A DNA stretch of 57,877 nt from Gammaproteobacteria bacterium (lineage in GTDB: Bacteria; Pseudomonadota; Gammaproteobacteria; Arenicellales; Poriferihabitantaceae). Below, piece by piece: positions 1-54,473 of the stretch (position 1 is its first letter; every line of letters begins with the position of its first letter). The stretch spans positions 107,576-165,452 of the forward strand of contig JAALKB010000001.1 of NCBI GenBank assembly GCA_011088265.1, read 5' to 3'. The position numbers and the translations under genes were made by a program. The notes under the pieces were generated by a model, which searched no databases, was not told the origin of the DNA, and worked only from the letters and a program-made list of their open reading frames with translations.

Positions 1-56
1 ACCGAATCAGAACCAAATTTCTTCTTAAACCGAATCAGAACCAAATTTCTTCTTAA
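1..56. repeat. perfect tandem duplication, 28 bp x 2 (may continue left of the window)
   Basis: accgaatcagaaccaaatttcttcttaa at 1-28 and again at 29-56. Confidence 0.95.
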
Positions 57-115
57 ATGGAGCAACTGTGGTAGTCTTAAAAAATTAACACTGATTTTCA
101 ACTGGTATAAACGAA

Positions 116-1045
116 TTGGCAGACAGAAGACTTCAGGTTTTTGCGACAGTGGCCAGGCTCTTGAGCTTTACCAAAGCAGCCGAATCCTTACATATGACTC
201 AGCCCGCAGTCACCTTTCAGATCAGGCAGTTAGAGGAGTACTTTAATACTCGGCTGTTTGACCGCACCCACAACCGAATTAATCTTACCGAGGCTGGTGA
301 ATTGGTGAAACGCTATGCCGATAACATCATCCTGCTCTATAGCGAGATGGACAACGAAGTCAGGACTCTAACCGGCGACGTCCAGGGGCCATTAATTGTG
401 GGAGCTAGCACCACCATTGGAGAATATTTCATCCCAGGAGTAATCGGCGCCTACCAATCCAACTTCCCAGACGTCAAGGTTCGGCTGAATGTGGCGAATA
501 CCAATGGCATTATCCATATGGTGGAGAACAATCAGATTGATATTGGTATTGTTGAGGGCCCGATTAATAACAAGAATCTCATTACTGATGTGGTTTGGGA
601 CGATGAGCTTGTGGTGGTTTGTCCCGCACAACATCCGTTAGCAGAGTTCAGTGAAATCGGTATTCCGGAGCTTATGAAGTATCCTTTCATTAGCCGTGAA
701 GAAGGCTCCGGGACTAGAGAGGTCGTTGAGAACTATCTACTGAAAAACGGCAGCACCATCGACAACCTTGATATCATTATGGAGTTTGGAAGCCCGGAAT
801 CCATTAAAAATGCAGTCGCAGCGGACCTTGGAATTTCTATTCTTTCTGTTGCCACCATGGAAAAAGAACTTGCATTGAACTCGCTTTGCGCAATCCCTCT
901 TGAATGTCCTATCAGGAGGCCCTTTTCAATTGTTCACCAACGACAAAAATTTCGGTTACGGGCAATGGATGAATTTCTTGAGTTCGCGCAAGCTCACTGT
1001 GAAAACCGGAAAAAGTTATTAAGGAAAACGATACCAAGCAGTTAG
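116..1045 (+). CDS. LysR-family transcriptional regulator
   Basis: 309-aa ORF with a TTG start. N-terminal wHTH signature (LQVFATVARLLSFTKAAESLHMTQPAVTFQIRQLE), followed by a LysR substrate-binding-type domain. Confidence 0.9.
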   Translation: MADRRLQVFATVARLLSFTKAAESLHMTQPAVTFQIRQLEEYFNTRLFDRTHNRINLTEAGELVKRYADNIILLYSEMDNEVRTLTGDVQGPLIVGASTTIGEYFIPGVIGAYQSNFPDVKVRLNVANTNGIIHMVENNQIDIGIVEGPINNKNLITDVVWDDELVVVCPAQHPLAEFSEIGIPELMKYPFISREEGSGTREVVENYLLKNGSTIDNLDIIMEFGSPESIKNAVAADLGISILSVATMEKELALNSLCAIPLECPIRRPFSIVHQRQKFRLRAMDEFLEFAQAHCENRKKLLRKTIPSS

Positions 1046-1145
1046 CACACGCCAAAAAACGTTAGTTTTCGGATCAATTGGCCATCACCTACTTTGGCAG
1101 CCAATTAGGCTTGTAATATTTTTGCCCAGCAAATAGGATAGGACC

Positions 1146-1652
1146 ATGTACTATGCTGGTTCAAAAAACAATCTGGATAAAGACGGCTATCGCCGTAATG
1201 TCGGTATCATTGTTTGTAACAGCGCAAGCCAGGTATTATGGGCAAGACGTATCCGCCACGATGGGTGGCAATTCCCCCAGGGAGGCATTGAACCAAGGGA
1301 GTCAGCAAAGGACGCTGCATTTCGCGAGTTATATGAAGAGATTGGCTTGGAGTCAAAAGATGTTCGGCTTTTGGGAAACACCATTAACTGGTTGCGTTAC
1401 GATGTTCCCTATGCCAATAGGATGCAACATCACAGGAGGAGAAAACAACAATTCAAGGGACAGAAACAAAGATGGTTCCTCTTTAAACTAACAGCAAAGG
1501 AATCATCAGTAAGGCTTGATCTATCGGAAAATCCGGAATTCGACCATTGGCAATGGATCGACTATTGGAGCCCAATTCACCATATTATCGATTTCAAGAA
1601 AAGTGTTTACAAGGAAGCATTGCGCGAACTAGAACCTTTGCTTTCTAAATAG
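1146..1652 (+). CDS. rppH: RNA pyrophosphohydrolase (NUDIX hydrolase)
   Basis: GYRRNVGIIVCN start and a Nudix box (GGIEPRESAKDAAFRELYEEIGL), typical of RppH/NudH. Confidence 0.88.
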   Translation: MYYAGSKNNLDKDGYRRNVGIIVCNSASQVLWARRIRHDGWQFPQGGIEPRESAKDAAFRELYEEIGLESKDVRLLGNTINWLRYDVPYANRMQHHRRRKQQFKGQKQRWFLFKLTAKESSVRLDLSENPEFDHWQWIDYWSPIHHIIDFKKSVYKEALRELEPLLSK

Positions 1653-1753
1653 AGAGCGAAAATAAACAGCACATCGCCCTACATATTGGACGCCAGGCAG
1701 ATTAGATGCCCAATTCCAAAAATGCGTCATCTCTTCTAAATCCTACTTACGCG

Positions 1754-16392: not shown

Positions 16393-16519
16393 AGTGGTCT
16401 AAGCAATATTCACAAGCATGTTGAAAACACACTGTTGAAGAGCGATATCCATCATGATACCTAAGATTTTTTCAATACCCGATTTTGTAACCAACTGATT
16501 AACCAACGAGGAAAATAAA

Positions 16520-17221
16520 ATGAAAATCCATAAATTAATAACCATAACTGCGCTCACAGCAGGGCTGAGTTTCAATGCATTAGCTGAAAATAAACCTGTA
16601 GGCATCACACCAGATATGATGTCCATAACGGTGACTCACAATGGCGAAGCTGTTGAAATAAAACGGAATCAGGATAATTCCAATACCGTCATTCCAGCTT
16701 TTGCCAAGACTTCACGGCATTGCCCTCCTTTTTGCATCCAGCCCATGTCCCTTGCCGAAGGCGTGGAGACCCTTGGAGAACTGGAAGTACTTGACTATGC
16801 GGCCAGGATGGAAGGTGGTGACAAGAGCATTCTTCTAATTGACTCCCGCACACCAGATTGGGTAGCGAAAGGCACCATTCCTAGCGCCGTCAATATTCCA
16901 TGGACAGAACTTGTACCCGCCAAAGGTGCAACAACAGAGGGTATTGTCAGTGTCATGAGAGACCAGTTCAATGTTAAAGTAGTGGAAGGGGCGGATGAAA
17001 TCGCGATTGACGATGCAATAGCAAACAATCAGGTATCGGAAGTATTCGATTATTCTGATGCGAGAACACTTGTTCTATTCTGCAATGGGATGTGGTGTGG
17101 TCAATCCCCAGCCAGCATTAAGACTCTCCTCAAATATGGCTACCCTGCGGAAAGCATCAAATGGTATCGCGACGGAATGCAATCCTGGGAAATTCTTGGT
17201 TTCAATACTGCAAAACCATAG
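16520..17221 (+). CDS. periplasmic rhodanese-domain sulfurtransferase
   Basis: GAGGAA RBS and a signal peptide (...SFNALA-ENK). CPPFC motif and a rhodanese active-site loop (FCNGMWCGQSP). Confidence 0.8.
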   Translation: MKIHKLITITALTAGLSFNALAENKPVGITPDMMSITVTHNGEAVEIKRNQDNSNTVIPAFAKTSRHCPPFCIQPMSLAEGVETLGELEVLDYAARMEGGDKSILLIDSRTPDWVAKGTIPSAVNIPWTELVPAKGATTEGIVSVMRDQFNVKVVEGADEIAIDDAIANNQVSEVFDYSDARTLVLFCNGMWCGQSPASIKTLLKYGYPAESIKWYRDGMQSWEILGFNTAKP

Positions 17222-17305
17222 TCAAAAATATCGCCAAAGCTATAGTCAAAACTTAGTCTGGCAATTGCAGAAACAATCCATATTAGCGTCAATAGGCAAT
17301 GAATC

Positions 17306-19661: not shown

Positions 19662-20243
19662 TTAACCGGGTTGGTTAGCACGGCGATATCGATTAAAGCG
19701 TTCGGTGTGATAGTGACCTTCCGTCACAAAGCGACCAAGCAAAAGAAAGTCATGCGCATTCTTTAACGCTCCTGTGTAACGGGTAATAAGGGAGCCCGAT
19801 GCATCGAAAAACGCGAATACCGGAGTTGCGCGTACGCGAAGCGACTTGAGCGCGAAATCTTTCGAAGTCATCTCTTCTCCGTTGAAATCCACAACGGGAA
19901 CATCTCCCTCAGCATCCACGCTAATCACCCTAAAATTTTCATGAAAGTAGTCCTGTACACTGACCCGGTTTAACACCTGTTGCTTCATTCTCATACACCA
20001 TGGGCAGTCTTTGGTTTCAAACATTATCAGAACGCCCTTCTTTCCTTCTTCTATTGCTATTGCCGCCTCTTCCTGCAAGTCCCCAAAAGAAACATCGAAA
20101 AAGGTATCGGCACCATCAGCGATATTATCTTCGGTTATTTGAGCGAGACCAGTATTCCAAATCGAAAACAGGGCAAGGACAACCAAAACAGTTACATTCC
20201 ATTCAATACTTTTTGCCGGCCCACCCAATCTGTTAATCTTCAT
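19662..20243 (-). CDS. periplasmic SoxW/COG2143-type thioredoxin-fold protein
   Basis: 193 aa. Signal/anchor segment, then KDCPWCMRM and ATPVFAFFD. First gene of a minus-strand trio with the TolC-like and HlyD-like genes. Confidence 0.75.
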   Translation of the reverse strand: MKINRLGGPAKSIEWNVTVLVVLALFSIWNTGLAQITEDNIADGADTFFDVSFGDLQEEAAIAIEEGKKGVLIMFETKDCPWCMRMKQQVLNRVSVQDYFHENFRVISVDAEGDVPVVDFNGEEMTSKDFALKSLRVRATPVFAFFDASGSLITRYTGALKNAHDFLLLGRFVTEGHYHTERFNRYRRANQPG

Positions 20244-20258
20244 CTATTTCGAACCCCT

Positions 20259-20288
20259 CGATAGTCTTAAATTCGATAGTCTTAAATT
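20259..20288. repeat. perfect tandem duplication, 15 bp x 2
   Basis: cgatagtcttaaatt twice in succession. Confidence 0.95.
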
Positions 20289-20327
20289 ACTTTCGCAAAA
20301 CCACAGCTCATTACACCAAACACCAAT

Positions 20328-20353
20328 CGGTGATAAAGATCGGCGATAAAGAT
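20328..20353. repeat. tandem duplication, 13 bp x 2 (1 mismatch)
   Basis: cggtgataaagat / cggcgataaagat. Confidence 0.9.
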
Positions 20354-20634
20354 CGATATTAGCCCCGATGAGACAATATTCACGGAGTAAGGATGAAATA
20401 GACCGCCTTACAAACCAGGAATAGGGCAGAAAACCAGAATTGACGCCTTCCTAATCAGACTCTTTATCCTATTTTGTTATAGGAGTTTAGCGACTAACCA
20501 GAACGATTATCAATAGCCCCTTGGCTTACCCAATATCCCCATTGCGCAATATGATCGTAATACTGCCTGTTATAGAATTAGGTCCAAATGACGCCAAAAT
20601 TAGCGTCAAAAACCGCACTTAGAACATCAATGCC

Positions 20635-22038
20635 GTGAAATATCTCCCTCTTCTGTTTGACATTACTGACAAACCCTGTCTGATTGTAGGCGGCGGAAAA
20701 ATAGCAACCCGAAGGGCCCAGAATATTTATAATGCAAATGCCCGTGTTGATGTTATCAGTGTCACAACAACGGACCAGATAGCCCAGATAGCCACGGAAT
20801 CAGGGGGTAAGGTTATCCTCCGATCATGGCATTCGAACGATATAAAGACATACTATCGATTTGTAGTTGCCGCAACAAATGATGAAAGAACTAATGTTAA
20901 GATTGCTGAAACATGCAAACAGCTTGGCATCCCTGTAAATGTTATCAGCGATTCAACGCTTTCTGACTTTTCGTTTCCTGCTGTCATCGATCGTGATCCT
21001 TTGACGATTACTGTTTCAAGTGGCAGCGCTTCCCCTATTCTAACGAAACTACTGGCTCAGCGCATTGATGCTTTGATTCCACAAGGTTATGGAAAACTCG
21101 CTACCTTAATCCGCAGATATCGCCATAAAATTAGAGAGAACATTCTGTCCCCTGGCAATCGCAAACTTTTTTGGGAAAGAGTTCTAACAGGGAACATTGC
21201 TGAACACATCTTTTCTGGCAACCAGTCTCGGGCGGAGGAGTTATTGCTAAAGTCCCTTACTGATCCCGAGAACACGACACCCAAAGGAGAGGTATACCTG
21301 GTTGGTGCTGGACCTGGAGACCCTGACCTATTAACGTTCCGAGCTTATAGATTGCTCCAACAGTCAGAGATTGTTCTTTATGATCGACTGGTATCGGAAA
21401 AAATTTTATCTCAGATTGGTTCGGACAAAAAAATGGTTTATGTTGGAAAACAACGATCAAACCACTCCGTCCCTCAAGGAGATATAAACCAGCTGCTGGT
21501 TGACTATGCTGTTGCCGGGAAAAGAGTTGCCCGTCTAAAGGGTGGGGATCCGTTTATTTTTGGCCGAGGCGGGGAAGAGATCGAGCTACTTGCTAGCAGA
21601 CAGATACCATTTCAGGTGGTACCGGGAATCACTGCCGCCTCTGGCTGTGCCAGCTATAGCGGAATTCCACTGACTCATAGGGATCATGCACAGTCAGTCA
21701 GGTTTGTCACTGGACAGTTGCAGGATGGAACCGTGGATCTTCCTTGGGACCAGCTTGTTGCACCGAACCAAACCGTTGTTATTTATATGGGATTAAATGG
21801 ATTACCTGCAATTTCGACAAACCTTATCCGCTACGGTATGAATTCAGAAACACCGGCGGCGATGATCGAGCAGGGAACCACCCTTGATCAAAAAGTCCAT
21901 ATTTCTACCATTGCAAAGCTACCAGACATGGTTGCCAGCCACTGCATCAGACCACCAACACTACTAATCGTTGGTAGTGTGGTATCGCTACACCACTCAC
22001 TCAATTGGTTCGGAAATTCATCTCCATCAAAGAAATAA
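20635..22038 (+). CDS. cysG: siroheme synthase (uroporphyrinogen-III methyltransferase / precorrin-2 dehydrogenase / ferrochelatase)
   Basis: 467 aa with a GTG start. N-terminal Rossmann motif (VGGGKIATRR) and the C-terminal methyltransferase motif GAGPGDPDLLT. Confidence 0.92.
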   Translation: MKYLPLLFDITDKPCLIVGGGKIATRRAQNIYNANARVDVISVTTTDQIAQIATESGGKVILRSWHSNDIKTYYRFVVAATNDERTNVKIAETCKQLGIPVNVISDSTLSDFSFPAVIDRDPLTITVSSGSASPILTKLLAQRIDALIPQGYGKLATLIRRYRHKIRENILSPGNRKLFWERVLTGNIAEHIFSGNQSRAEELLLKSLTDPENTTPKGEVYLVGAGPGDPDLLTFRAYRLLQQSEIVLYDRLVSEKILSQIGSDKKMVYVGKQRSNHSVPQGDINQLLVDYAVAGKRVARLKGGDPFIFGRGGEEIELLASRQIPFQVVPGITAASGCASYSGIPLTHRDHAQSVRFVTGQLQDGTVDLPWDQLVAPNQTVVIYMGLNGLPAISTNLIRYGMNSETPAAMIEQGTTLDQKVHISTIAKLPDMVASHCIRPPTLLIVGSVVSLHHSLNWFGNSSPSKK

Positions 22039-25116: not shown

Positions 25117-25359
25117 CTATTGAGGAACCCTCGCCTGCCACAAGCCCCCTTCACGCTCATGCTGAGCCACAGCATCAGAGGCTTGTTCATGGGCTTTCGC
25201 TACTAATTTCACTGCCTCTTCATTCTCACCAGCTTCATTAGCAGCTTTCGCTTTTTTCAGGAGCTTTTTGGTATCTCTCCATTCAAAACCTAATTTAGCG
25301 GCGGCCTGGCGTTGTTCATCAGCGGCTTTCCATGAAGCTTCAAATTCATCACTTGCCAT
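25117..25359 (-). CDS. small Ala/Lys/Glu-rich helical protein of unknown function
   Basis: 80 aa counted from the ATG that overlaps the soxB stop (ATGGCAAGTGA). The ORF extends to 25437 with a weak signal-like prefix. Composition is low-complexity helical. Confidence 0.4.
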   Translation of the reverse strand: MASDEFEASWKAADEQRQAAAKLGFEWRDTKKLLKKAKAANEAGENEEAVKLVAKAHEQASDAVAQHEREGGLWQARVPQ

Positions 25360-28869: not shown

Positions 28870-28902
28870 CCAGGGAAAACCCATGCCAGGAAATCGTACA
28901 CC

Positions 28903-28944
28903 AGGAAAACCCCGCCATAGGAAAACCCCACCATAGGAAAACAT
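28903..28944. repeat. tandem repeat, 16 bp x about 2.6
   Basis: aggaaaaccccgccat / aggaaaaccccaccat / aggaaaacat. Related ccagg(g)aaaaccc copies occur from 28870. Confidence 0.9.
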
Positions 28945-28970
28945 AGACCAGGCTTCCCAGATGATACCCA

Positions 28971-29867
28971 ATGTCCCTTGTCAATATTGAGTTTACGCTG
29001 TTTTCTGCTTTCTATTCTCCGCTCATCCTTACCATGGGCGGAGGGTTTCTGAAACAGGAGGGACTTGAATATACCTGGACCGTTTCGCCCCCAGGGAAAT
29101 CAGCTATCCAGGGAATCATTGACGGTACCGCTGACGTTATTCAATCAGCTCCGAGCCAAGGGTTTAACCCGCAACATTCCACCATAGGAAGTGCCCAGCC
29201 GGAAATTCGCCACTTTGCACAAATTAACGAAATGGATGGCTTTTTTATTAGTGGCCGAAAAGCGGATCCGGATTTCCAATGGAAAAAGCTCGAAGGAGCA
29301 GAAGTCGTCATGTTTAAAGGCGGTCAACCAAACGTCATGTTCCGCTATGCCTGCCACAAAGCAGGCATAGATTATGATAGCATTATTCCGATCACGCCCG
29401 GCGGACCAAAAGCAATAGACGATGCATTTAGAAATGGAGAAGGGCAGTACGTCCAACAACAAGGACCTTTTCCCCAACAACTGGAAGCCAACAACATGGC
29501 CTCTATTTTATCCATGTCGGGACCATTGGTTGGAGAGTGTGCGTTCTCCAGTCTAGCTGCATCGAAACAATGGTTGGAAACTGACGAGGCAGAAGCATTT
29601 TGCCAGGCTTATCGCAAGGCACGAGAGTTTATTAATTATGCAGAGGCTAAAGAAATAGCAGAAATTCAACTACCATTCTTTCCACAAACCACCCTTGACA
29701 TCCTGGAATCCTGCATAAAATCCTACCAGAAATTAGGTTGTTGGACCTCTCATATTGAAATTACAAAACAGGCATTCGACGCTACTCAGGATATTTACAT
29801 ACGTATGGGATCACTTTCCGAAAAAATTCCATATTATAAAGTCTGCTCTCTTCCCCCAGAATCCTGA
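28971..29867 (+). CDS. hypothetical protein, possibly an NMT1/THI5 (SsuA/TauA-like) binding fold without a signal peptide
   Basis: 298-aa ORF with coding-like composition. The family assignment is tentative and rests only on overall resemblance. Confidence 0.5.
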   Translation: MSLVNIEFTLFSAFYSPLILTMGGGFLKQEGLEYTWTVSPPGKSAIQGIIDGTADVIQSAPSQGFNPQHSTIGSAQPEIRHFAQINEMDGFFISGRKADPDFQWKKLEGAEVVMFKGGQPNVMFRYACHKAGIDYDSIIPITPGGPKAIDDAFRNGEGQYVQQQGPFPQQLEANNMASILSMSGPLVGECAFSSLAASKQWLETDEAEAFCQAYRKAREFINYAEAKEIAEIQLPFFPQTTLDILESCIKSYQKLGCWTSHIEITKQAFDATQDIYIRMGSLSEKIPYYKVCSLPPES

Positions 29868-35609: not shown

Positions 35610-35837
35610 ACTTTGCTTACAATTCCAACAAAGAACAATTTGGTAATAGGAAGTTGGGGAAAGTTGGGATGACTCACCATTTTATTTTCAACTTTATGCT
35701 GAAACTCAACAATCGCTTGGGTTACCGAAGACTCATCCACCTTATTCAGAATAAGGTGGTCATACACTTCGGGATAATTCCATTTTTCCATCCCTGGACT
35801 ATCGGCATAAACAATCTAATGGTCAATGGCCAAATGT

Positions 35838-37382
35838 TCAATGCTTAGAGGTTGACCGACGATAGTGACCTTGAATAATGCGATCAATCACCATGGCACA
35901 AAACAGAATGGCCAAACCAGCCAGCATACCCTGCCCTTTCGCTGCATATTGTAATGCTTCAAGCACATCTTTTCCCAAACCGTCCGCCCCAATTAAAGAA
36001 GCGATAACAACCATGGAGAGGCACATCAGAATTGTCTGGTTAATTCCAGTCATGATAGACGGCATCGCCAGTGGGATTTCAACATCCTTGAGCAGAGTCC
36101 ATTTCGTACAACCAAATGCGATGGCCGCCTCTTTTGTGTTTTCAGGCACTCCCCTCATACCCAAGGCAGTTAGTCTAATAACAGGGGGCATACCAAAAAT
36201 TATTGTAGCCAGTACACCGGGAGGCTTACCTGTACCAAAGAAAGCAATAATCGGGATTAAATAGACGAATGCTGGCATTGTTTGCATAAAATCGAGCACA
36301 GGTAGCGCAGTATTATAGGCTCGCTGGCTTTTACCAAACCAAATTCCTAAAGGAATACCCATTAACACGCATAAAAATGCAGCTGCCCCAAGCAAAGCAA
36401 CCGTAATCATACTTGTTTCCCACAGACCGACCATACCCAAATAAGCCAGGGCTGTGGCCGTAAATACGGCAACCCGGGGCCCGGCTAAGCGCCATGCTGT
36501 CACAAGAATTACCGTAAATACCACTGGCCATGGCGTACCAACGAAAACGGTTTCCAAACCATCGAGTATTGATCTGATCACAACTACCACAGTGTCAAAA
36601 ACATCGCCGAACTCATTGGACAACCAGTCAAAACCCTCCTCCATCCATCTGGAGATAGGTGAAAAGTACTGTTTCTTCTCAATCGGAAAGTCTAGAACCC
36701 AGGGCTCTAACGATTTAGCGATTTTACCAACCGTAAACCGATAGATTGTCAGCGGTACAATGGCAAGCCAAAGCACTACACCGAAACTAATCCATTTCCA
36801 GCTCAATCCCGAAGGAACTGAGGCATCCGCACGCCATTCCAGATATTGTTTTTCATAGCGCATATTGGCGTAAAACCCCTGTACCAACCTCAGAGCAACC
36901 AGCAATACCAAGCCAAGAACCAAATAAAAAGTAGCGTCCGCAGCAGCAGCCGCGGCTTCATCTATCAACCTCGCCACGACTTTTTTCAAGTTGTCTGCTC
37001 GAGTGGTAATACTTTCCACTGCGGCCAGATCATTGGCCAATCTCGCCGCTTCCGCTTTTTCATAAAGCCCTTCATATTTTCCTGTCAGGCGCTCCGCTCT
37101 CGACAATTTATCCGCGCCCAATTCTCCCCACAATCCTTTGCCAATTTGAACAAAGGCAAGAATTTCCAATACCATAAAAGTCCAGAAATATCCCCAAATA
37201 CCCCGCCCTGCCGCCCAGAAAGGTCCCACCAATGCGGCCATTTTGTTCCATGACCACGGAAATCTCGTTGCGGCCTGGATTTTGTCAAACTCCCGGTTGT
37301 AGTACTCCTTGTTTTCAACCACAAAGTCCCCAACGGAGGCACCCAATTTATTGGGCTCTGCTGAAAAGCCTGTTTCTTGCAT
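35838..37382 (-). CDS. proW: glycine-betaine-type ABC permease (ProW/OpuAB) with a roughly 290-aa N-terminal extension
   Basis: The C-terminal 220 aa carry the BPD permease core (EAA-like loop AIAFGCTKWTLLKDVEIP). The start codon overlaps the proV stop. Confidence 0.88.
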   Translation of the reverse strand: MQETGFSAEPNKLGASVGDFVVENKEYYNREFDKIQAATRFPWSWNKMAALVGPFWAAGRGIWGYFWTFMVLEILAFVQIGKGLWGELGADKLSRAERLTGKYEGLYEKAEAARLANDLAAVESITTRADNLKKVVARLIDEAAAAAADATFYLVLGLVLLVALRLVQGFYANMRYEKQYLEWRADASVPSGLSWKWISFGVVLWLAIVPLTIYRFTVGKIAKSLEPWVLDFPIEKKQYFSPISRWMEEGFDWLSNEFGDVFDTVVVVIRSILDGLETVFVGTPWPVVFTVILVTAWRLAGPRVAVFTATALAYLGMVGLWETSMITVALLGAAAFLCVLMGIPLGIWFGKSQRAYNTALPVLDFMQTMPAFVYLIPIIAFFGTGKPPGVLATIIFGMPPVIRLTALGMRGVPENTKEAAIAFGCTKWTLLKDVEIPLAMPSIMTGINQTILMCLSMVVIASLIGADGLGKDVLEALQYAAKGQGMLAGLAILFCAMVIDRIIQGHYRRSTSKH

Positions 37383-38428
37383 TAGTTATTTCCCCCTTTG
37401 ATGCCCTTTAGTAGCGTAGTTTTACTTACAACCCCGACATCTTTACCATCATCCGTTATCACGATGGGTTGATCCGTGGTAGTCGAGATATCAATTAACC
37501 CACTTAGATCAGTATCATGGGGCACTCTGGGAGCGACAGATAGATCATCGCCATGCTGCCATTCATAGTCCACCATTCTCTGCATAATAGAATGAGCAAA
37601 AATCAATTTCAGAGTTGATATTCCTTCAACAAAGTCCCTTACATAGTCATCAATCGGATTGGTAACAATCTCCTCGGGAGTCCCTATCTGGACAATGGCT
37701 CCATCCTTCATAATAGCAATTCGATTTCCTATTCGAATTGCCTCATCCAGATCATGGGTAATAAAAACGGTAGTTTTATCCAGGTCTGCTGACAATGCCA
37801 TAAACTGTTCCTGAAGCTGACGTCGAATTAACGGATCAAGCGCCGAAAAAGGCTCGTCCATTAATAACACTTCCGGGTCAGATGCTAGTGCACGGGCCAA
37901 TCCCACCCGTTGTTGCATACCGCCAGACAGTTCCCGAGGATAGCGATCTTCATAACCATCCAGATTCACTAAATCAAGACAGCGTTGAGAAACTTCCCAT
38001 CTTGTGGATTTGGGCTCACCTTGAACCTGAAGTGGAAATGCCACATTATCCCTAACCGTCCGATGGGGAAATAATGCCATGTGCTGAAACACCATTCCGA
38101 TATGAGCCGCCCGCAGCTTACGTAAATCGTCTTCGTTAAGTTTAAGCACATCCTTTCCAAGAACATTGATCTTTCCAGCTGTTGGCTCTATCAGCCTGTT
38201 TAGATGCCGAACCATAGTAGATTTACCTGAACCGGATAAACCCATCACACAAAAGATCTCACCTCTTGGAACCGAAAAAGAACAATCCGCAATACCAACG
38301 ACGCAGCCGAATTTCTCCAACACCTGAGGCTTGGATAGGTTATCTTCTTTAACGGCCTTCATTGCCTTTTCGGCTTTGTCGCCGAATATTTTCCAGACAC
38401 CTTCTAGCTCTATGACTTTTTCACTCAA
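37382..38428 (-). CDS. proV: glycine-betaine/proline-type ABC ATPase (ProV/OpuAA)
   Basis: Walker A GLSGSGKST, signature LSGGMQQRV, Walker B LLMDEPFSALD and a C-terminal CBS-like tail. Confidence 0.93.
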   Translation of the reverse strand: MSEKVIELEGVWKIFGDKAEKAMKAVKEDNLSKPQVLEKFGCVVGIADCSFSVPRGEIFCVMGLSGSGKSTMVRHLNRLIEPTAGKINVLGKDVLKLNEDDLRKLRAAHIGMVFQHMALFPHRTVRDNVAFPLQVQGEPKSTRWEVSQRCLDLVNLDGYEDRYPRELSGGMQQRVGLARALASDPEVLLMDEPFSALDPLIRRQLQEQFMALSADLDKTTVFITHDLDEAIRIGNRIAIMKDGAIVQIGTPEEIVTNPIDDYVRDFVEGISTLKLIFAHSIMQRMVDYEWQHGDDLSVAPRVPHDTDLSGLIDISTTTDQPIVITDDGKDVGVVSKTTLLKGIKGGNN

Positions 38429-38539: not shown

Positions 38540-38569
38540 AACACCCGTTACTGGAACACCCGTTATTGG
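38540..38569. repeat. tandem duplication, 15 bp x 2 (1 mismatch)
   Basis: aacacccgttactgg / aacacccgttattgg. Confidence 0.9.
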
Positions 38570-38739: not shown

Positions 38740-38779
38740 GTTAAATCCTATGTTAAATCCTATGTTAAATCACGCCTAT
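38740..38779. repeat. tandem repeat, 12 bp x 2 plus a third copy with a 4-nt insertion, reaching the proX stop codon
   Basis: gttaaatcctat / gttaaatcctat / gttaaatc-acgc-ctat. Confidence 0.9.
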
Positions 38780-39735
38780 TGCAGCCAGGTACTTACCAAA
38801 TCAGCATTTTTCTCAACCCACTCTTTCGCGAACTCTGCCTTGTCAACTTTATCGACAACAACTGCATAGGTCATTCCAGAAACGAGATCAGTGTCTAATT
38901 TGATGTTTGACAACATACTAGCCACACCAGGGTGGGAGTCCTGCAACGCAGTTGCATAGTGAACATGCAAATAAGCCAGGTCCCATGCAACAGGAGCCTC
39001 AGACTTTTCCAACCAATCAGGATCATCGGTAGGCTGAATCACATTCCATTTAGCAGCGTCATAATCTGGTTCACTGAGAATCACCAGATCGTGGAGAGCG
39101 AAAACATGGTTAGGCGTGTAGCAGAAAAAAGTGATGTTCTCGTCTTTCGCAACCGCACTATCAACCTCAGCCATCGCAAGGGTTTCGTCCATTTCTTTCA
39201 GCGACATGGTTTCGTTGTAACCATAGCTTTTCGCGCGGATCTTCTCAACATTGGTCGATGCCCAACCAGAGGCGCCAATCCAGACCTCACCCATGCCATC
39301 TCCGTCAGAGTCGAAATGTTTCGCCATATCCGGATCACTTAAGTCAGACAGGGCCTTGATTCCGGTTCTCTCAGCAGTACCCTTGGTAACGCACATGCCC
39401 TGGAACGCAGGCACACCATTAGGACTCATGGCAACTGTGCCTTTTTCCGTTACAAAGGTATTGTGAAGATTGGATTGGTTAGGCAACCAAACCTCTGGGT
39501 GAACATGCATACTGCCTGCATCCATGGCCTCAAATACTACAGGGTTTGTTCCACTTTGAAGCTCAACTTCCAAACCAAAGTTGTCTTCTATGACCACTTT
39601 GAGAATGTCTGCTGTTGCTGCCACAGAGGGCCAGTTAGGGACACCAATTACTACGTCAGCTGCCTGGGCTGCTGCGCCAAACACCATTGCTCCAGCAAGC
39701 ACAGGCGCCGTTATTTTTCGAGTTATTGCTTTCAT
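38776..39735 (-). CDS. proX: periplasmic substrate-binding protein of the OpuAC/ProX family
   Basis: Signal peptide MKAITRKITAPVLAGAMVFGAAAQA from the Met at 39735 (the ORF extends to 39789). Trp-rich binding-protein core. Confidence 0.82.
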   Translation of the reverse strand: MKAITRKITAPVLAGAMVFGAAAQAADVVIGVPNWPSVAATADILKVVIEDNFGLEVELQSGTNPVVFEAMDAGSMHVHPEVWLPNQSNLHNTFVTEKGTVAMSPNGVPAFQGMCVTKGTAERTGIKALSDLSDPDMAKHFDSDGDGMGEVWIGASGWASTNVEKIRAKSYGYNETMSLKEMDETLAMAEVDSAVAKDENITFFCYTPNHVFALHDLVILSEPDYDAAKWNVIQPTDDPDWLEKSEAPVAWDLAYLHVHYATALQDSHPGVASMLSNIKLDTDLVSGMTYAVVVDKVDKAEFAKEWVEKNADLVSTWLQ

Positions 39736-40165
39736 TTTTATACCTTTGGTTATTTTTTTCCGGAACGAACTAATATAAAACCCGCTCAATCATACTTTCT
39801 TTTTCAGGCTTTCCTGTCCACGGACAATCCTGTATTTTGCAATTTTGGAATACCAAATCCAATGATATCGAAATACAACCGCAAGGTTAGCATCTAAACA
39901 AAAGTAACGTTTATACGTGCCCAGGTTGCGCAGAAAAATGATATTGCGTAAGTTAAGTGTATTATTAATCCTAGTGCGATAGCAAGTTTGTGGATATTAC
40001 AGGCGAAACATCTGAAATTTGGCCCACCAGCCGTTGATTTCAGTAATGTTTTATCTTTATATTGCTTGTCTCAAAAATGTTTGCTCAAAATTCAAACAAC
40101 GCGTGTCACGAATCTTAATTCCATAGCACTGCTAACAACTAACAATAACCGATGTGGGAACTATC

Positions 40166-42867: not shown

Positions 42868-43827
42868 ATGAGCGATTACCCCGAGTTCTCTGATCCCATT
42901 ACTCGTCCCCGTTACACGGGCCTGCCCACTTTCATGCGAGCTCCCTATCAGGAAAATTTCGACGGAGTCGATATCGGTTTAATAGGAGTACCATTCGATG
43001 GTGGAGTAACTAACCGTCCCGGCGCTCGACACGGCCCAAGAGAAATCAGAAACCAATCAAGTCTGATTAGGAAAATGAATCAGGCAACTGGCATTTCACC
43101 TCATGAAATTTGCAGTGTAGCCGATATTGGAGATGCCTGGGTGCAGAAACCTTTCACCCTGGAGGGAAGCCATCAGGAAATTTATGGGTTTTACCAATCG
43201 GTAATGGATGCAGGAGTAACTCCGGTATCAGCGGGTGGGGATCACTCGATCACTCTTCCTATTTTTCGCGCACTAGCCAGAAAGGGCCCCATTGGAATGG
43301 TTCACTTCGACGCTCATTGCGACACTGGTGACGATTACATGGGTTCAAAATTTCACCATGGCGCACCTTTCAGCCGAGCCGTGGAAGAAGGATTACTCGA
43401 CCCCAAACGCACTATTCAAATCGGCATCAGAGGATCACTAAACGATCCCGATGTCTGGAAGTTTAGTCATGACTCCGGGATGCGGGTTATCTATATAGAA
43501 GAATACTTTGAAATGGGATACAAATCAGTTATCGAAGAAGCCCGGAAGATAGTTGGCAATGGCCCCACATATATCAGCTTTGATGTCGACGCCCTGGATC
43601 CCGTTTATGCTCCGGGAACAGGTACTCCAGAGATTGGTGGCTATTCCACTCTGGAGGCCCAAATGATGATTCGAGGATTAAGCGGGCTTAATTTAGTGGG
43701 AGGTGATGTGGTAGAGGTCTCCCCACCATTCGATCCAAGCGGTAATACTGCGCTAGTGGGAGCCACAATGATGTTCGAAATTCTTTGCGTTGTAGCTGAA
43801 TCATTACAATCCCACAAAGCGACTTAA
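42868..43827 (+). CDS. agmatinase-family ureohydrolase (agmatinase / guanidinobutyrase / guanidinopropionase type)
   Basis: Mn-site motifs GGDHSIT, HFDAHCDTGD and SFDVDALDP. Confidence 0.9.
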   Translation: MSDYPEFSDPITRPRYTGLPTFMRAPYQENFDGVDIGLIGVPFDGGVTNRPGARHGPREIRNQSSLIRKMNQATGISPHEICSVADIGDAWVQKPFTLEGSHQEIYGFYQSVMDAGVTPVSAGGDHSITLPIFRALARKGPIGMVHFDAHCDTGDDYMGSKFHHGAPFSRAVEEGLLDPKRTIQIGIRGSLNDPDVWKFSHDSGMRVIYIEEYFEMGYKSVIEEARKIVGNGPTYISFDVDALDPVYAPGTGTPEIGGYSTLEAQMMIRGLSGLNLVGGDVVEVSPPFDPSGNTALVGATMMFEILCVVAESLQSHKAT

Positions 43828-43914: not shown

Positions 43915-43950
43915 CAGAAATAGAAAAACTCACAGAAATAGAAAAATTAG
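43915..43950. repeat. tandem duplication, 18-bp period x 2 (14-bp identical core)
   Basis: cagaaatagaaaaa at 43915 and again at 43933. The second copy abuts the stop codon of the TPR gene. Confidence 0.9.
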
Positions 43951-44498
43951 ATAATATTCTGCTGAATCTGTTTTCTGATTAGCTTAATGCTCTCGCTGAT
44001 ATTGTGCATATGGGGGTTGTACTGTAGCGCCCTCTCGAGAAACACCAGGGCAGCAAGGTGATTTTCTAACTGCATATAAATCAGGCCCTGTCCTGATAGT
44101 GCACCAAAGTGGCGGGGTTCCAGTCTTAATGTCTGTTTTACATCACTGGTGGACAATTCATACTCCCCCATCATGTAATAAGCCGTGGCTCGCGCATTCC
44201 AGCCTTCAGCGAATTCCGGCGCTAGATCAACAACCTTTGAAAAATACTCAACCGCAACTTTCAAATCAGCCCCATGCATGCTTTGCATTCCCTGCGCCAT
44301 TAGCAGAGTGACATCTTCATCGTCAAAATGTCGCCAAACACGCCATATCTGGTTGGTAATGCTGACGGCCTCCACATGGTTTTCCGTCTCGTGCAAACGA
44401 TCAAAAAGGCCAACCAGTTCAGGATCGTTCTGATCGGCGTTGGCAGGAACCATAGCAAACAGCGCGAAAACAAGGGTAGTTTTAAGCAATATTCTCAT
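43947..44498 (-). CDS. secreted TPR-repeat protein
   Basis: GGAGG RBS ahead of the Met at 44498. Signal peptide MRILLKTTLVFALFAMVPANA, followed by TPR-like repeats. Confidence 0.72.
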   Translation of the reverse strand: MRILLKTTLVFALFAMVPANADQNDPELVGLFDRLHETENHVEAVSITNQIWRVWRHFDDEDVTLLMAQGMQSMHGADLKVAVEYFSKVVDLAPEFAEGWNARATAYYMMGEYELSTSDVKQTLRLEPRHFGALSGQGLIYMQLENHLAALVFLERALQYNPHMHNISESIKLIRKQIQQNII

Positions 44499-44649
44499 CG
44501 TTCTATCCTCCATATCATTAGGTTTGAACATCAGACACTATCAAGGTTCACTGAAAAACGTGTAAATTACAAGTTTCCAGACAGAAAACAAACCATTTAC
44601 TTCTTGAACAAAATACGAGCCGAATTACACAGAGTTCGAAAAATCACAA

Positions 44650-45627
44650 CTATGATAAGGCAGCTACAGCCGCTTCAAGCGTCTGGGCGTTTATGACAGA
44701 CAGATAGTCTGGAGCTCCCTCCATTCCCCTGAACGTTTTCTTAACGATACCTTCGAGATTAGGACGCTTTTCCCCTGCGGTATCTCCCTTCCCCAAGCCA
44801 CCACCAAATTCAATGAATAGCTGGACCTCGGCAGCTCCCAATGCTTGTAAGTTTCTATGCCACAAAACAGGATTGAATAGCTGAAGGAACAATCGGGACT
44901 TAATTGAACCAGGATACTCATTGTGGGAACCACCGGTGAAATTGGACATCACTCCAATTTCAGGAGAACAAAAATCGGCCTGCTCAAGATTACTCCTAAA
45001 ATGCGTTGCGGCGGTGACCATGTAAAAGGTATGAAAAGCGCCTTCGGTTTTTAAATGAGCACTTCTTTTTCTCGGAAATCTTTCGGCCATATCAACGACC
45101 AATGCCTCCAGATCCTCAGGCTTACCGCCCACTACATTTTGATCAGGAAGATTGCAGGCAGAAATGCCGCAATAGTGCCTCTGGGCCAGTGATGTCGCTG
45201 ATTCAAAATCAATCATAAGCGCTTCCATTTCACCCTCCCCATAGTCGCCCATCAATTCTCCCCGGCGCTTGACCAACTGCAACGCCAGTTCAAAAGTCAG
45301 CGACTTACCACAAACCAGTGCCGAATATTCGCCAAGACTATGTCCAGCCGCCATTGAAGGTTGAACCTTTCCCTCGGTTAGCTCCTCAAAAATTCGCATA
45401 CACGCAATAGAATGAGTCAGCAAAACCGGTTGAGTAAAACGGGTAAAATTGATTTGGTTCTCAGGGTCTTCAAACGAGAGCTTTTTTATGTCATATCCAA
45501 GCACATCGCTCGCTTCTTCGTAGGTTTGCTTTACGGAATCATATTGATCGTATAAATCCAGACCAATTCCGCGATACTGCGCCCCCTGCCCCGGAAACAG
45601 GAAAGCAATGTTCTTAACTTGCGACAT
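44650..45627 (-). CDS. fabD: ACP S-malonyltransferase-family acyltransferase (stand-alone)
   Basis: [10 protein letters not shown] and [10 protein letters not shown] motifs. It is not within a fabH/fabG/acpP cluster in this window. Confidence 0.75.
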
Positions 45628-45825
45628 AATGATGATTTAAAAATGGAAGAATTGAATAGCTATAGAATTATACGATCATTGGCCCGAAGTGGCTTCGAGA
45701 TTTTCCACGAAAAGGGCAAGATGCTTCTCATATTCAGCAAATACTTCTCTGTGGTACATGTATGGTTAATACCAAACCGCTACAATATCGGCATCGTTAA
45801 TAGAACACAATCTTCGGGTAGAAAA

Positions 45826-46719
45826 ATGACAACAGTAATTGACGGCAAAGCATTTGCAGTCGGACTTCGAAAGAAAATCGGAGATTCGGTATCATCTCTC
45901 ATCAATGAACATAATATAAAACCTGCTCTTGCTGTGGTATTGGTTGGGGAAGACCCAGCGAGTCAGGTTTATGTCCGCAACAAAGGCAAGCAAACCCTTG
46001 AAGCGGGCATGGATTCCATTGAACATAAGCTTCCTGTGGATACCTCAGAAGAAGATTTACTTTCTCTGGTAGATCAGCTTAATAACGACCCTAAAATTAA
46101 CGGTATTCTGGTTCAGTTACCTCTACCTAAACAGATTGATGAATCCAGGGTCATCAACACAATTAGCGTTGAGAAAGATGTTGATGGATTTCATATTGAA
46201 AATGTTGGAAAGCTCTCTATCGGCGAGGAATCATTAGTGCCATGCACACCTGCGGGTTGCATAATGCTCTTGAAAGATCATCTTGGTAGCTTATCCGGTA
46301 AAAATGCAGTGGTAGTGGGGAGATCAAATATTGTCGGCAAGCCCGTGTCAATGCTACTCCTAAAGGAAAGTTGCACCGTCACCATCACCCATTCCAGAAC
46401 TCAGGATTTACCCAGTGTTTGCCGTGAAGCAGATATTCTTATCGCCGCCGTTGGTGTCCCTGAAATGATCAAAGGGGAGTGGGTAAAGCCCGGGGCAGTG
46501 GTTATCGATGTCGGTATTAATCGCGTCAGCACCGACGAAGGTAAAACCAAACTGGTTGGAGACGTCGACTTTAAAGCCGCAATGGAAGTAGCCGGTGCGG
46601 CAACTCCAGTTCCTGGCGGCGTTGGCCCTATGACAATTGCCTGCTTACTTCGAAATACTGTCATTGCTGCCTGCCGCCAGCATAACGTAGAGATTCCCGA
46701 AGCGATAAAGTCATTTTAA
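45826..46719 (+). CDS. folD: bifunctional methylenetetrahydrofolate dehydrogenase/cyclohydrolase
   Basis: [11 protein letters not shown] start, [14 protein letters not shown] and GGVGPMT. The 69-codon upstream extension of the ORF overlaps fabD and is rejected. Confidence 0.93.
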
Positions 46720-46744
46720 ACTTTAACTATTTTAAACTTTAACT
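46713..46744. repeat. perfect tandem duplication, 16 bp x 2, spanning the folD stop codon
   Basis: attttaaactttaact twice. The first copy contains the folD TAA at 46717-46719. Confidence 0.95.
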
Positions 46745-48396: not shown

Positions 48397-48421
48397 ATTG
48401 TGAGCTAAATTAGTGGATCCT

Positions 48422-51105: not shown

Positions 51106-51582
51106 CTAGAGTCGGCTCAATCTTCTTAGTAACTGTAAAATCAGATCTTTTTCCATTTCTTCTCTTAAGAACTCCGCTTCCTGCTCAGCGAGCAATTCCT
51201 GGTTGGGGTCGTATTCCTGGGTTCTGGTTTGAGAAATAGCGGTGGGTGGTTGCAGTGTTTCTCCATTACCGCTCACAACCGAATAATCGAGGTTATAGTA
51301 ATAGGTATATCCGGTGGCCCTTCCTTGAGCGTCCGTCTTGCTCACCGAACTCAGGTATTGCAAATTTGTGATATCCAATTGGGTAGTACCGGTTTGACTG
51401 ATGACAACAGCGGCGCCATTCCTTTCAAGTTCGTTGGTAAGCGATTCAATAAAGTCTTGATCAGTACCGGACAGGGAAACACTACTTAACGATTTCGGCA
51501 AAGAAAAATTGCCACGCAAATGGAAACCACACCCGGAAATCAGGGAGATAGCAAGCAAAGCAGGTATCAAGCGTTTAAACAT
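51106..51582 (-). CDS. lptE: LPS-assembly lipoprotein LptE
   Basis: Lipobox LISGC after MFKRLIPALLAIS. The position between leuS and holA is conserved. Confidence 0.8.
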   Translation of the reverse strand: MFKRLIPALLAISLISGCGFHLRGNFSLPKSLSSVSLSGTDQDFIESLTNELERNGAAVVISQTGTTQLDITNLQYLSSVSKTDAQGRATGYTYYYNLDYSVVSGNGETLQPPTAISQTRTQEYDPNQELLAEQEAEFLREEMEKDLILQLLRRLSRL

Positions 51583-51630
51583 TGGCGTTTCCATAAAGTC
51601 ATCAATTAGCAAGTGTGGGTATTATAAGAC

Positions 51631-54099
51631 CTAAATGACGAGATTCACCAGTCTACCAGGGACAACAATGACTTTTTTAATGGGTTTTCCCCCTATGTAC
51701 TTCTGCACTTTCTCGTCAGCTAACACCATTTTTTCGATTTCAACTTTCTCACAGGAAGTAGAAACTTCAATTTCACTACGCAATTTCCCGTTTACCTGAA
51801 TTACAAGCAGGACAGTATCACTAACGAGAGCATTTTTATCCACATCAGGCCACGACGCGTCGATCACGTCTCCTCGCTCTCCCATTTCGCACCACAATTG
51901 ATGAGCGATATGAGGAACAATGGGAGCCAATACTTTATTTAAGATTATCAGAGCCTCACGAAGAACCACTGGACCATCCTCATGTCGCTGAAAATCATAC
52001 TTATCGAGGGCATTGAGCAACTCCATCGCCCCAGCAATCACCGTATTGTAGTGAAACTTTTCGTAATCCCGATTTATTTTTTCCAAAATAGAATGCGTCA
52101 ACTTACGGATTCTCCTTGCATCTCCATCAGACACGGATTCCCGCCAATCAGGTTCGTCCATCCTCGCTTGCACACCAGCGACCGCAGTTTTTGAGTTTTG
52201 GGTCAAGGTCCACCATCGTCGCAGGAATCGATGGGCTCCAGCCACGGCATCATCGTTCCATTCAAGCGCCTGTTCTGGCGGAGCTGCGAACATCACAAAA
52301 AGCCGAACGGTGTCCGCCCCATAAAGATCAATCATTGATTGGGGATCTACCGTATTCCCTTTGGATTTTGACATCTTCGAGCCGTCCTTTAATACCATTC
52401 CCTGGGTTAACAGATTGGTAAAGGGCTCATCACTGGTCACCAATCCTGCATCCCGCATCAATTTATGAAAAAATCGGGCATACAAAAGATGCAACACAGC
52501 ATGCTCAATACCGCCCACATATTGATCAACCGGCAGCCAATAGTTTGCTCGCTCATCTAGCATGGCGTTCGCTCCAGGGCAACAATAGCGTGCAAAATAC
52601 CATGAAGATTCAAAGAAAGTATCAAAAGTATCCGTCTCCCGGGTTGCAGGATAGCCCGAGCCTGGCAGAGTAGTATTGTAAAATTCAGGGTCTTCCTTGA
52701 TAGGAGATTTCACACCACAGAAAGCAACATCTTCGGGTAAAATAACTGGCAATTGGTCGTCGGGAACCGGAATAACGTTATCATTCTCGTCGTATATTAT
52801 CGGGATTGGACATCCCCAATATCGCTGACGAGACACGCCCCAATCCCGAATCCGATAGTTAATTTTGCGCTCACCGACTCCTTTTTCCTCCAGAGCAGCA
52901 ATGATCGCATCACTGGCGCTGGTAAAATCCAAACCATCAAACTCACCTGAGTTATAGGTCAGTCCGTTTTTGGCCGTCATCGACGACGTCAAATAATCAT
53001 GGGAAGGATGATCTGGTGATGCAATAACCGGTCTAATTTCAATTTCATGTTTGATCGCAAACTCCCAATCCCGTTGATCATGGGCTGGTACCGCCATCAC
53101 AGCACCGGTGCCATACCCCATCAGTACAAAATTGGCGACCCAAACGGGAACTTCTTCGCCACTAATAGGATGAACGGCATTGATACCCAAAGGAATTCCT
53201 TTTTTCTCCATGGTTTCAAGCTCGGACTCCGCAGTATTGGTCTGTTTGCATTGAGCCACGAACTCCGAAACCCTGGCGTTACTCTCTGCGACTTTTAGTG
53301 TCAACGGATGCTCCGCTGCAACGGAAACAAATGTCACTCCCATAATAGTGTCAGGACGGGTGGTGTAAACACCCAAAGACTCTTCCCCCGGCACCTCGAA
53401 ATTGAACTCCACTCCTTCGGAGCGTCCTATCCAGTTACGCTGCATGGTCCGCACTGCATCCGGCCACCCTTCAAGATTGTCAATTTCTGTCAGCAACTCC
53501 TCCGCATAAGCGGTAATTCTGATAAACCATTGCGGGATCTCTTTTCGCTCTACCAGGGCACCGGATCGCCACCCTCTGCCATTTTCCACCTGCTCGTTGG
53601 CTAGCACTGTCTGTTCCACAGGATCCCAATTCACTACCGCCATTTTTTTATAAGCTAATCCCTTTTCAACCAGCCGGTTGAAAAACCATTGCTCCCACTG
53701 GTAATACTCAGGTGTACAGGTTGCCAGTTCCCGGTCCCAATCATAGGCAAAGCCCAGCCGCTTGAGCTGACCTTTCATATAATCAATATTCTCATATGTC
53801 CATTTCGCTGGGGGCATTTGATGTTTTATGGCAGCATTTTCCGCTGGCAGACCAAACGCATCCCACCCCATGGGCTGAAGCACATTTTTACCCAGCATGC
53901 GCTGATACCGGCTAATGACATCACCAATGGTATAGTTACGCACATGTCCCATGTGCAGTTGCCCCGAAGGATATGGCAACATTGATAGACAGTAGAACTT
54001 CTCTCTCTGTGGATCCTCTTTTACAACAAAACTTCGATTATTTCCCCAATGCTGCTGAACCCGCTGTTCGATTTCTGTTGGGGAGTATTCGTTAGTCAT
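51631..54099 (-). CDS. leuS: leucine--tRNA ligase
   Basis: HIGH-type motif (HMGHVRNY) and KMSKS. Start taken at [12 protein letters not shown]; the ORF extends 38 codons further, to 54213. Confidence 0.95.
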
Positions 54100-54445
54100 T
54101 TCAATTCTGGCGATTATCAATCTCTGATCACGACATCCTGTTTCTAAACCATCATCATGATGATCTTTGGAGTGCCCTGTCAAATACATATTCACTGCTG
54201 CTGGCACCGCCACCGGATGTTCTATCCAAAAACAATACCTGACTCAATCAGAAGCCCGTTTACAGCACATAACGTTCTAAACCCTCTGTCAGAGGTTAGA
54301 AAAGAGCGCGATTTTAACTGATTACCATCATCGACGGTGATTAACCGACATATTTTTAGTGTTCATCATTCAAAGCATCTTAAAGCCAAGAGGAATAGGA
54401 CTACTATTAAGGGCCCGAGATATCGATCACCTGGAAATTTCAAAC

Positions 54446-54473
54446 TAAATTCACCCGGCTAAATTCACCCGGC
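54446..54473. repeat. perfect tandem duplication, 14 bp x 2
   Basis: taaattcacccggc twice, in the leuS/dnaG divergent spacer. Confidence 0.95.

Follow-up and report, generated by a model that had tools for sequence, protein, structure and literature searches.

Short tandem duplications in the intergenic spacers of a gammaproteobacterial sponge symbiont

Short, head-to-tail duplications of DNA were characterised in a 57,877-nucleotide stretch of a genome from the Arenicellales/UBA10353-type gammaproteobacterial lineage. This stretch, hereafter the window, spans positions 107576-165452 of contig C128 in a 4.17-Mb assembly of 317 contigs (GCA_011088265.1, here G000). An initial annotation of the window had listed adjacent direct duplications in its non-coding DNA, and these were checked with Tandem Repeats Finder (TRF) and by direct reading of the bases. 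Every strong case was recovered by TRF, with coordinates agreeing to within 1-2 nt (Table 1), together with one degenerate repeat (27353-27384) that was absent from the earlier list. The cases considered weaker at the outset fared unevenly. The array that overlaps the 3' end of the rhodanese gene represents an old event that has since decayed, and the 10-mer pair at 35649-35668 is retained, whereas the two halves of 16488-16511 have only a 7-nt core in common and are not convincing as a duplication. Within the genes of the window, TRF reported only repeats that are short, low-scoring or of a period divisible by three.

Table 1. Tandem duplications of the window and the genes beside them. Positions are those of the window; "sequence" denotes direct reading of the bases.
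Position	Unit	Copies and match	Basis	Setting	State in other assemblies
1-56 (TRF 1-57)	28 bp, ACCGAATCAGAACCAAATTTCTTCTTAA	2, perfect	TRF, sequence	approximately 60 nt upstream of LysR-family gene 116-1045 (Pfam match)	
17211-17258	12 bp, degenerate array	4.1, 72% matches	TRF	3' end of rhodanese gene 16520-17221 (Pfam)	
20258-20288	15 bp, TCGATAGTCTTAAAT	2.1, perfect	TRF, sequence	divergent spacer between thioredoxin-like gene (19662-20243, minus strand) and cysG (20635-22038) (Pfam); starts 16 nt upstream of the thioredoxin-like gene	identical across 6 independent assemblies
20326-20355	13 bp, ATCGG(T/C)GATAAAG	2.3, 1 mismatch	TRF, sequence	same spacer as 20258-20288	identical across 6 independent assemblies
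27108-27136	14 bp, ACCTTACCTTCTCA	2.1, perfect	TRF, sequence	spacer from 5'-nucleotidase/SoxB-like gene (25349-26992, minus strand) to tusA (27443-27673) (Pfam)	unchanged in aligned assemblies
27353-27384	12 bp, degenerate	2.8, 81% matches	TRF	same spacer as 27108-27136	
28903-28942	16 bp, AGGAAAACCCC(G/A)CCAT	2.5, 1 mismatch	TRF, sequence	34 nt past stop of YeeE/Sulf_transp gene (27739-28869)	unchanged in 10 assemblies
35649-35668	10 bp, weak pair GGAAGTTGGG / GAAAGTTGGG	1 mismatch	sequence		
38540-38569	15 bp, AACACCCGTTA(C/T)TGG	2, 1 mismatch	TRF, sequence	between ABC ATPase gene (37382-38428, minus strand) and proX/OpuAC gene (38776-39789, minus strand)	unchanged in L152-L154
38740-38771	12 bp, GTTAAATCCTAT	2.7, perfect	TRF, sequence	immediately downstream of proX stop	
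43915-43950	18 bp, decayed pair CAGAAATAGAAAAACTCA / CAGAAATAGAAAAATTAG	3 mismatches	sequence (below TRF threshold)	between arginase-family gene (42868-43827) and TPR gene (43947-44531, minus strand)	
46713-46744	16 bp, ATTTTAAACTTTAACT	2, perfect	TRF, sequence	first copy includes final codons and TAA stop of folD (45619-46719; domains matched)	
54445-54478	14 bp, CTAAATTCACCCGG	2.4	TRF, sequence	spacer from leuS (51631-54213, minus strand) to dnaG (54551-56332) (Pfam)	

The whole assembly was then scanned for perfect adjacent duplications. Four hundred and thirty loci of period 8-60 were found, 191 of them with a period of at least 12. Markov simulations of order 1, 3 and 5 give approximately 0-0.3 perfect duplications of that size per 4.17 Mb, so the duplications are not chance repeats. 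Against the genome mean, 2.65 perfect duplications of period 12 or more were expected in the window and six were observed (Poisson P = 0.05). The 191 were placed on a gene map made from crude hexamer-scored open reading frame (ORF) calls (3718 genes, 83% coding), which agree with Pfam in the window: 136 lie between genes, 14 run across a gene end and 41 fall inside coding sequence. This corresponds to 216 per Mb of non-coding DNA versus 12 per Mb of coding DNA, an 18-fold depletion in genes, and the period is divisible by three in 32 of the 41 coding cases. The confinement to non-coding DNA that had been suspected from the window therefore holds genome-wide. As an assembler is blind to genes and reading frames, this contrast argues for real events that have been filtered by selection. 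When up to two mismatches are allowed, 587 events of period 13-21 are present in the 0.696 Mb of non-coding DNA (844 per Mb); that is, the spacers hold about one recognisable 13-21-bp duplication per 1.2 kb. Events were found in all 145 contigs of at least 10 kb, and their density is unrelated to the GC content of the contig.

Density was compared with that of relatives using the identical gene caller and scan throughout. Six genomes were sampled, one from the same genus (G001) and five from the same family, and a further set drew 1.24 Mb from the cysG loci of 80 other proteobacteria. By the same measure (period 13-21, up to two mismatches, per Mb of non-coding DNA), the 844 events of G000 compare with 103 in G001, 161 in G006, 72 in G013, 44 in G014, 72 in G004, 127 in G007 and 82 in the 80 proteobacterial loci. 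Pooled, the seven sets contain 39 events in 0.423 Mb (92 per Mb), a ratio of 9.1 (95% confidence interval 6.6-12.6). In the same-genus genome alone, 7 events were seen where 57 would be expected at the G000 rate (P = 5e-17). The comparison with relatives that the initial annotation had proposed as a check thus comes out in favour of a genuine excess. Perfect duplications are approximately 6 times as dense in G000 as in relatives in non-coding DNA and approximately 1.8 times in coding DNA. The sizes differ as well, with 13% of events exceeding 16 bp in G000 and 33% in relatives (P = 0.01). Relative to their counterparts in G001, orthologous spacers of G000 are 21% longer (n = 40, P = 0.023), and the non-coding fraction is 16.6% versus 11.8-16% in relatives. 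With the nearest other species, approximately 74% identical in DNA, spacers cannot be aligned; among 5.8 billion proteins searched, the one next in similarity was 85% identical and lacks a recorded contig.

A closer inspection of the duplications themselves showed that their units are unrelated to one another. Of 183 units, 135 are unique to their own locus in the genome, and clustering by 9-mers gave only chance links and a few local arrays, with no shared consensus. Neither a sequence motif nor a primase-type start signal was found at the junctions. With copies that are also directly adjacent, the loci form neither a dispersed family, such as repetitive extragenic palindromic (REP) elements, nor a CRISPR array, an exclusion already made from the window. 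Adjacency is the preferred geometry: among exact direct repeats of at least 11 nt lying within 150 nt of each other in spacers, 207 are adjacent (gap 0) and 172 have a gap of 1-5 nt, the latter mostly imperfect tandems, while each wider gap class holds 35-60 repeats. Two copies are present in 168 loci, three in 9 and four to six in 6. One spaced direct repeat (GCGTTTAACTT..GCGCGTTTAACTT, C260:15100-15150) adjoins a 13-mer array and may be an older duplication interrupted by a later change.

The size spectrum of the perfect non-coding duplications is at chance at period 4, has a bump at 6, forms a plateau at 10-15 bp (24-33 loci per period) and then drops to 11, 4, 3 and 1 loci at periods 16-19. 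With up to one mismatch the counts for periods 13-19 are 83, 89, 67, 33, 12, 5 and 3. A separate non-coding excess exists at period 6 (228 observed versus 132 simulated), and at periods 5 and 7, and is distinct from the 10-15-bp plateau. Junction microhomology, taken as the identity extending beyond two full copies, amounts to 0 nt in 30% of cases, 1 nt in 29% and 2-3 nt in 20%, where chance in silico gives 54%, 28% and 16%, respectively; longer extra identities are mostly partial third copies. Non-coding events of period 13-21 with 0, 1, 2 and 3 mismatches number 113, 182, 287 and 354, compared with 0, 0.5, 9.5 and 73.5 in block-shuffled controls. Decayed copies are therefore at least as numerous as perfect ones, which argues for a long-running process with slow loss and not for a recent burst.

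An exact-protein look-up recovered the same loci in assemblies that trace back to two studies of the sponge Mycale hentscheli, namely JAAHTH01 (the deposit of PMC7196800), WLWU01, WLWE01, WLWF01, WLWG01, the ENA 'STOR20-1' scaffolds and Logan assemblies of several runs. Between 16.6 and 38.9 kb of the window, identity is 99.85-100% with no indels, and all two-copy duplications are unchanged (in at least 8 assemblies with the 28-mer included). The population is nearly clonal, with 0-12 substitutions and no indels per 2-21 kb in up to 10 assemblies (window 16662-38869 against L141-L161). Accordingly, no polymorphism was seen at two-copy loci in approximately 28 kb across up to 10 assemblies. The duplications are real and are fixed in this near-clonal population. 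The genome is that of a near-clonal Mycale hentscheli symbiont, and this organism is probably the mycalamide producer 'Ca. Entomycale ignis' named in PMC7196800.

These assemblies also bear on the first duplication of the window. The 28-bp unit at 1-56 is present as two perfect copies, as originally described, but it directly follows a scaffold gap, and G000 reads three copies, a run of Ns and two copies across C128:107393-107632. Exactly two copies and no gap are found in JAAHTH01, WLWU01, WLWE01 and Logan assembly SRR10090330. Four gap-free assemblies in agreement indicate that two copies are the true state and that the additional copies are a scaffolding artefact. Scaffold gaps of this kind, at tandem duplications with identical flanks (also at L154:1786-1885), are overlapping contig ends joined by Ns. 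In addition, 31 contig ends terminate in long poly-G or poly-C runs (e.g. C13:20060-20114, C149:1-42), which we take to be an artefact of sequencing chemistry; some are swallowed by ORF calls and they yield false tandem repeats such as CCCCCCCCCCCGCCCC.

Given that a missing mismatch-repair or polymerase gene had been proposed as a check, the genome was searched for a genetic cause. Seventeen replication and repair proteins of E. coli K-12 were compared with the whole genome by tblastn, and family searches for the 5'-nuclease domain, ExoI and Ku were carried out, with 20 relatives included. Full-length recA, recX, mutS, mutL, uvrD, rep, recQ, recJ, xseA (ExoVII), dnaQ and rnhA (RNase HI) are present. 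An apparent split of mutS is a contig break. The apparent truncation of mutL is a scaffold gap in its Gln-rich linker (C262:4012-4112); both domains are present, as are the C-terminal motifs DMHAAHERITYE and CNHGRP. DNA polymerase I (Pol I) has its 5'-nuclease domain with the acidic motifs intact and, like all the relatives, the genome has an Xni-like paralogue. Absent from the genome are ExoI, ExoX (looked for in G000 alone), SbcC, MutH, Dam and HolE. ExoI is also absent from 16 of the 20 relatives, including ones of low duplication density. The nuclease arch of Pol I (C288:16659-17513) carries RAAMP in G000 alone, where 24 of 30 relatives have RPPMP. This substitution was rejected as a cause, for the prolines are missing from G014 (RDVMP) and G021 (RSAMP) too, and duplications are sparsest in G014.

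We consider it probable that misalignment during replication left the duplications as scars, neutral or nearly so, which this lineage carries in unusual abundance, and that they are not functional elements. While DNA is being replicated or resynthesised in repair, the nascent strand would occasionally re-pair its 3' end 10-16 nt upstream on the template; alternatively, an equivalent short displaced strand might be re-incorporated. The re-paired stretch would then be copied twice, producing a head-to-tail duplication of arbitrary sequence. Because little or no microhomology is used, we infer that the events are independent of RecA. In genes, such insertions would shift or disturb the frame and be removed by selection, save for a minority with a period divisible by three. 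In spacers, the copies would persist, slowly gather mismatches and sometimes grow into multi-copy arrays resembling variable-number tandem repeats (VNTRs). The approximately 9-fold excess suggests that the indel spectrum has shifted in this lineage in particular, and weak purifying selection together with a weak bias towards deletion may have added to the effect in a population confined to its host. A changed mutation spectrum would account for the larger part of it, given the distinct size spectrum, the enrichment of the youngest class and the lack of an excess in relatives with reduced genomes. The lineage-specific slippage or microhomology signature first suggested for the window thus stands as to its genome-wide extent, its 18-fold depletion in genes and its excess over relatives, but not as to microhomology, of which there is only 0-3 nt.

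We further raise, tentatively and with rather less confidence, the possibility that the organism is a natural mutator for small tandem duplications. A lineage-specific trait of replication or lagging-strand maturation would, on this account, generate 10-16-nt duplications with almost no microhomology at approximately 10 times the usual rate per substitution. Candidate steps are the handling of primers or flaps and the realignment of nascent strands. If so, the size limit close to 16 nt would correspond to some physical length within the replication machinery, and the genome would display a defined bacterial indel signature without a known genetic cause.

A number of observations weigh against the main reading, that of neutral misalignment scars. 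Microhomology is just slightly over chance, and classical slippage between direct repeats is thus not demonstrated. No lineage-specific loss was found among the mismatch-repair, exonuclease and polymerase or flap-nuclease genes searched, and those that are absent do not account for the pattern. In coding DNA the enrichment is slight, and the excess could be specific to non-coding DNA or due to selection and not to mutation rate; the weak coding enrichment and the near-clonality together keep drift in play. The coding map itself is approximate, coming from our own crude hexamer-scored ORF caller, and the relatives were sampled at 0.2-0.43 Mb each and not scanned whole. Lastly, two arrays differ in copy number between G000 and WLWU01/WLWF01, a 13-mer array on C260 (6 versus 7 copies) and a 14-mer array on C32 (4 versus 5), whereas a 14-mer array of 50 nt on C35 has 3 copies in both. 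The arrays that differ exceed the 55-nt overlaps common to many contig ends, which are taken to be the assembler k-mer size, and the one on C35 is shorter; the differences may be assembly effects.

The alternative that survives best is that mutation is ordinary and the excess purely population-genetic, slightly deleterious spacer insertions drifting to fixation in a clonal, host-restricted symbiont of small effective population size and weak deletion bias while free-living relatives purge them. We regard this as unlikely, although a good deal is in keeping with it: 99.85-100% identity across specimens and studies, an expansion of insertion sequences (IS; two families of element ends), longer orthologous spacers than in G001, long retention as indicated by decayed copies outnumbering perfect ones, and little enrichment in coding DNA. 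However, a 9-fold excess would need approximately 90% of insertions to be purged in relatives, and promoter-free convergent spacers tolerate them equally. The youngest class, that of perfect copies, is already enriched 2-10 times, and the size spectrum is unlike that of relatives. Moreover, G004 (2.3 Mb) and G007 (2.5 Mb), reduced-genome relatives that are plausible symbionts, show no excess, and the non-coding fraction of G000 is only slightly above that of relatives.

A functional role, either as paired direct-repeat sites for regulators or as a special architecture of the 5' or 3' untranslated region (UTR), had also been offered for the window and appears highly improbable. Direct repeats are typical of response-regulator sites, and some copies do lie near starts or stops, as upstream of the thioredoxin-like gene and dnaG and over the folD stop. 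Genome-wide, though, density is 285 per Mb in convergent spacers, 274 in divergent and 179 in co-directional ones. Convergent spacers, which are free of promoters, being as dense as divergent ones, neither the binding-site nor the UTR idea is supported. The location of duplications inside co-directional spacers is flat, and density is constant in spacers of up to 400 bp. The preference for abutting stop codons noted earlier is not supported, as positions within spacers are uniform and short spacers give such closeness by chance. Thus none of the enrichment in promoter spacers, fixed distance to genes and conservation in relatives that would mark regulator sites was seen; same-genus and same-family genomes are without the duplications. 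The units have no common sequence, identity spans the whole period, including positions that a protein would not constrain, and Rfam gave no match in the window.

Equally improbable in our view are the footprints of staggered cuts, whether target-site duplications left by excised elements or the products of fill-in and end joining of 10-16-nt 5' overhangs. The narrow 10-16 bp range and the near-zero microhomology resemble such products, and the genome is rich in IS copies. Two families of IS ends occur at contig ends, one marked by TAGTCGTCCCTGAAGAACCCGAAAAGG (approximately 25 ends) and one by TAGTCCGTCCTGAAAAAAGGCGCGATG (approximately 19 ends; examples of these families are C36:1-55, C99:1-56 and C198:34538-34596), and an IS end of approximately 94% identity also terminates contigs of the same-genus G001. 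Both abundant families abut TA/TAG-type targets, however, and not 10-16-bp target duplications, and as an origin of the duplications IS footprints were rejected. No residual element sequence lies between copies and the junctions have no motif. Ku, on which non-homologous end joining of filled-in overhangs would depend, had no match in G000. Precise excision that retains the target duplication is not known as a bacterial pathway.

Least credible of all is an artefact of assembly, scaffolding or sequencing: for all the scaffolding faults at repeats (the 28-mer and the like gap in L154), the poly-G contig ends and the arrays above 55 nt that vary by one unit, the two-copy duplications are shorter than the assembler k-mer and read the same in assemblies from NCBI, ENA and Logan that cover different samples and two studies, an artefact would neither avoid genes nor favour periods divisible by three inside them, and relatives that are likewise short-read metagenome-assembled genomes (MAGs) have no excess.

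Several known systems invite comparison. REP elements and bacterial interspersed mosaic elements (BIMEs), miniature inverted-repeat transposable elements (MITEs), the short tandemly repeated repetitive (STRR) heptamers of cyanobacteria and CRISPR arrays are also short intergenic repeats, but they have a shared consensus or unique spacers. In G000, by contrast, the unit differs from locus to locus and its copies abut; there is neither one consensus at many loci nor an array of repeats with unique spacers. In chloroplast intergenic spacers, most insertions duplicate adjacent spacer sequence, in non-coding DNA only and in a compact, clonally inherited genome, and a related 15-bp intergenic insertion has reportedly been seen in the barley chloroplast mutator; chloroplasts are, however, a different genetic system. 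Among flap-endonuclease defects (rad27/FEN1 in yeast, 5'-exonuclease mutants of polA in E. coli), short tandem duplications dominate the insertions. The length scale in G000 fits short displaced flaps or primers, but unlike in those mutators the Pol I 5'-nuclease is intact with all its acidic motifs and Xni is present.

Slipped-strand mispairing, or replication misalignment, is the birth step of bacterial VNTRs and minisatellites, and RecA-independent rearrangements of this type have been studied in E. coli. The duplications described here resemble its products in being head-to-tail, of arbitrary sequence, depleted in coding DNA with in-frame survivors and occasionally present in 3-7 copies. 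Several features expected at the birth of a VNTR are likewise seen, namely adjacent copies, a local and arbitrary unit sequence and purging from coding DNA with survivors biased to periods divisible by three. They differ from the usual products of misalignment in their density (approximately 9 times that of relatives), in the sharp ceiling at approximately 16 bp, in the tiny microhomology and in having no accompanying exonuclease or mismatch-repair loss.

Among phenomena with published data consulted here, the closest is that of the microhomology-mediated tandem duplications (MTDs) of fission yeast (PMC8639346). Three ssp1 alleles duplicate segments of 55-92 bp with 5-8 bp of microhomology at each end, and E. 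coli is reported to have MTDs at approximately 1/20th of the S. pombe frequency (PMC8639346). As in fission yeast, tandem duplications in G000 are genome-wide, filtered by frame in genes and unbiased between them (PMC8639346). Unlike in fission yeast, the units are 10-16 bp and 59% have only 0-1 nt of extra identity; identity of at least 4-5 nt at both segment ends, the mark of MTDs, is not the pattern here. The finding is a variant, quantitatively and qualitatively, of a mutational process already known, and not a genetic element of a new type.

VNTRs, the growth of spacers and certain changes in promoters and UTRs draw on short tandem duplications as their raw material, and a bias towards deletion is usually held to keep bacterial genomes compact. 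This genome offers a natural case for studying what determines the insertion part of the indel spectrum in bacteria, and it can help to separate mutation bias from drift in host-restricted symbionts. For annotation, direct repeats beside genes in this genome should not be taken as regulator sites. Users of these MAGs should rely neither on the copy number of an array that exceeds the k-mer nor on scaffold gaps at repeats.

Elsewhere in the assemblies, one 4.2-kb locus occurs on two long contigs of GCA_012103415.1 (L147 and L148; WLWU01000014.1 and WLWU01000016.1), and is either a large duplication or a case of redundant contigs. As to the gene content of the window, 25349-29867 is a sulfur-oxidation and thiosulfate-uptake neighbourhood, the genes concerned being the SoxB-like 5'-nucleotidase, tusA, yeeE, rhodaneses, cysG and thioredoxin-like genes. 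The genes dnaG and leuS lie at 51.6-56.3 kb.

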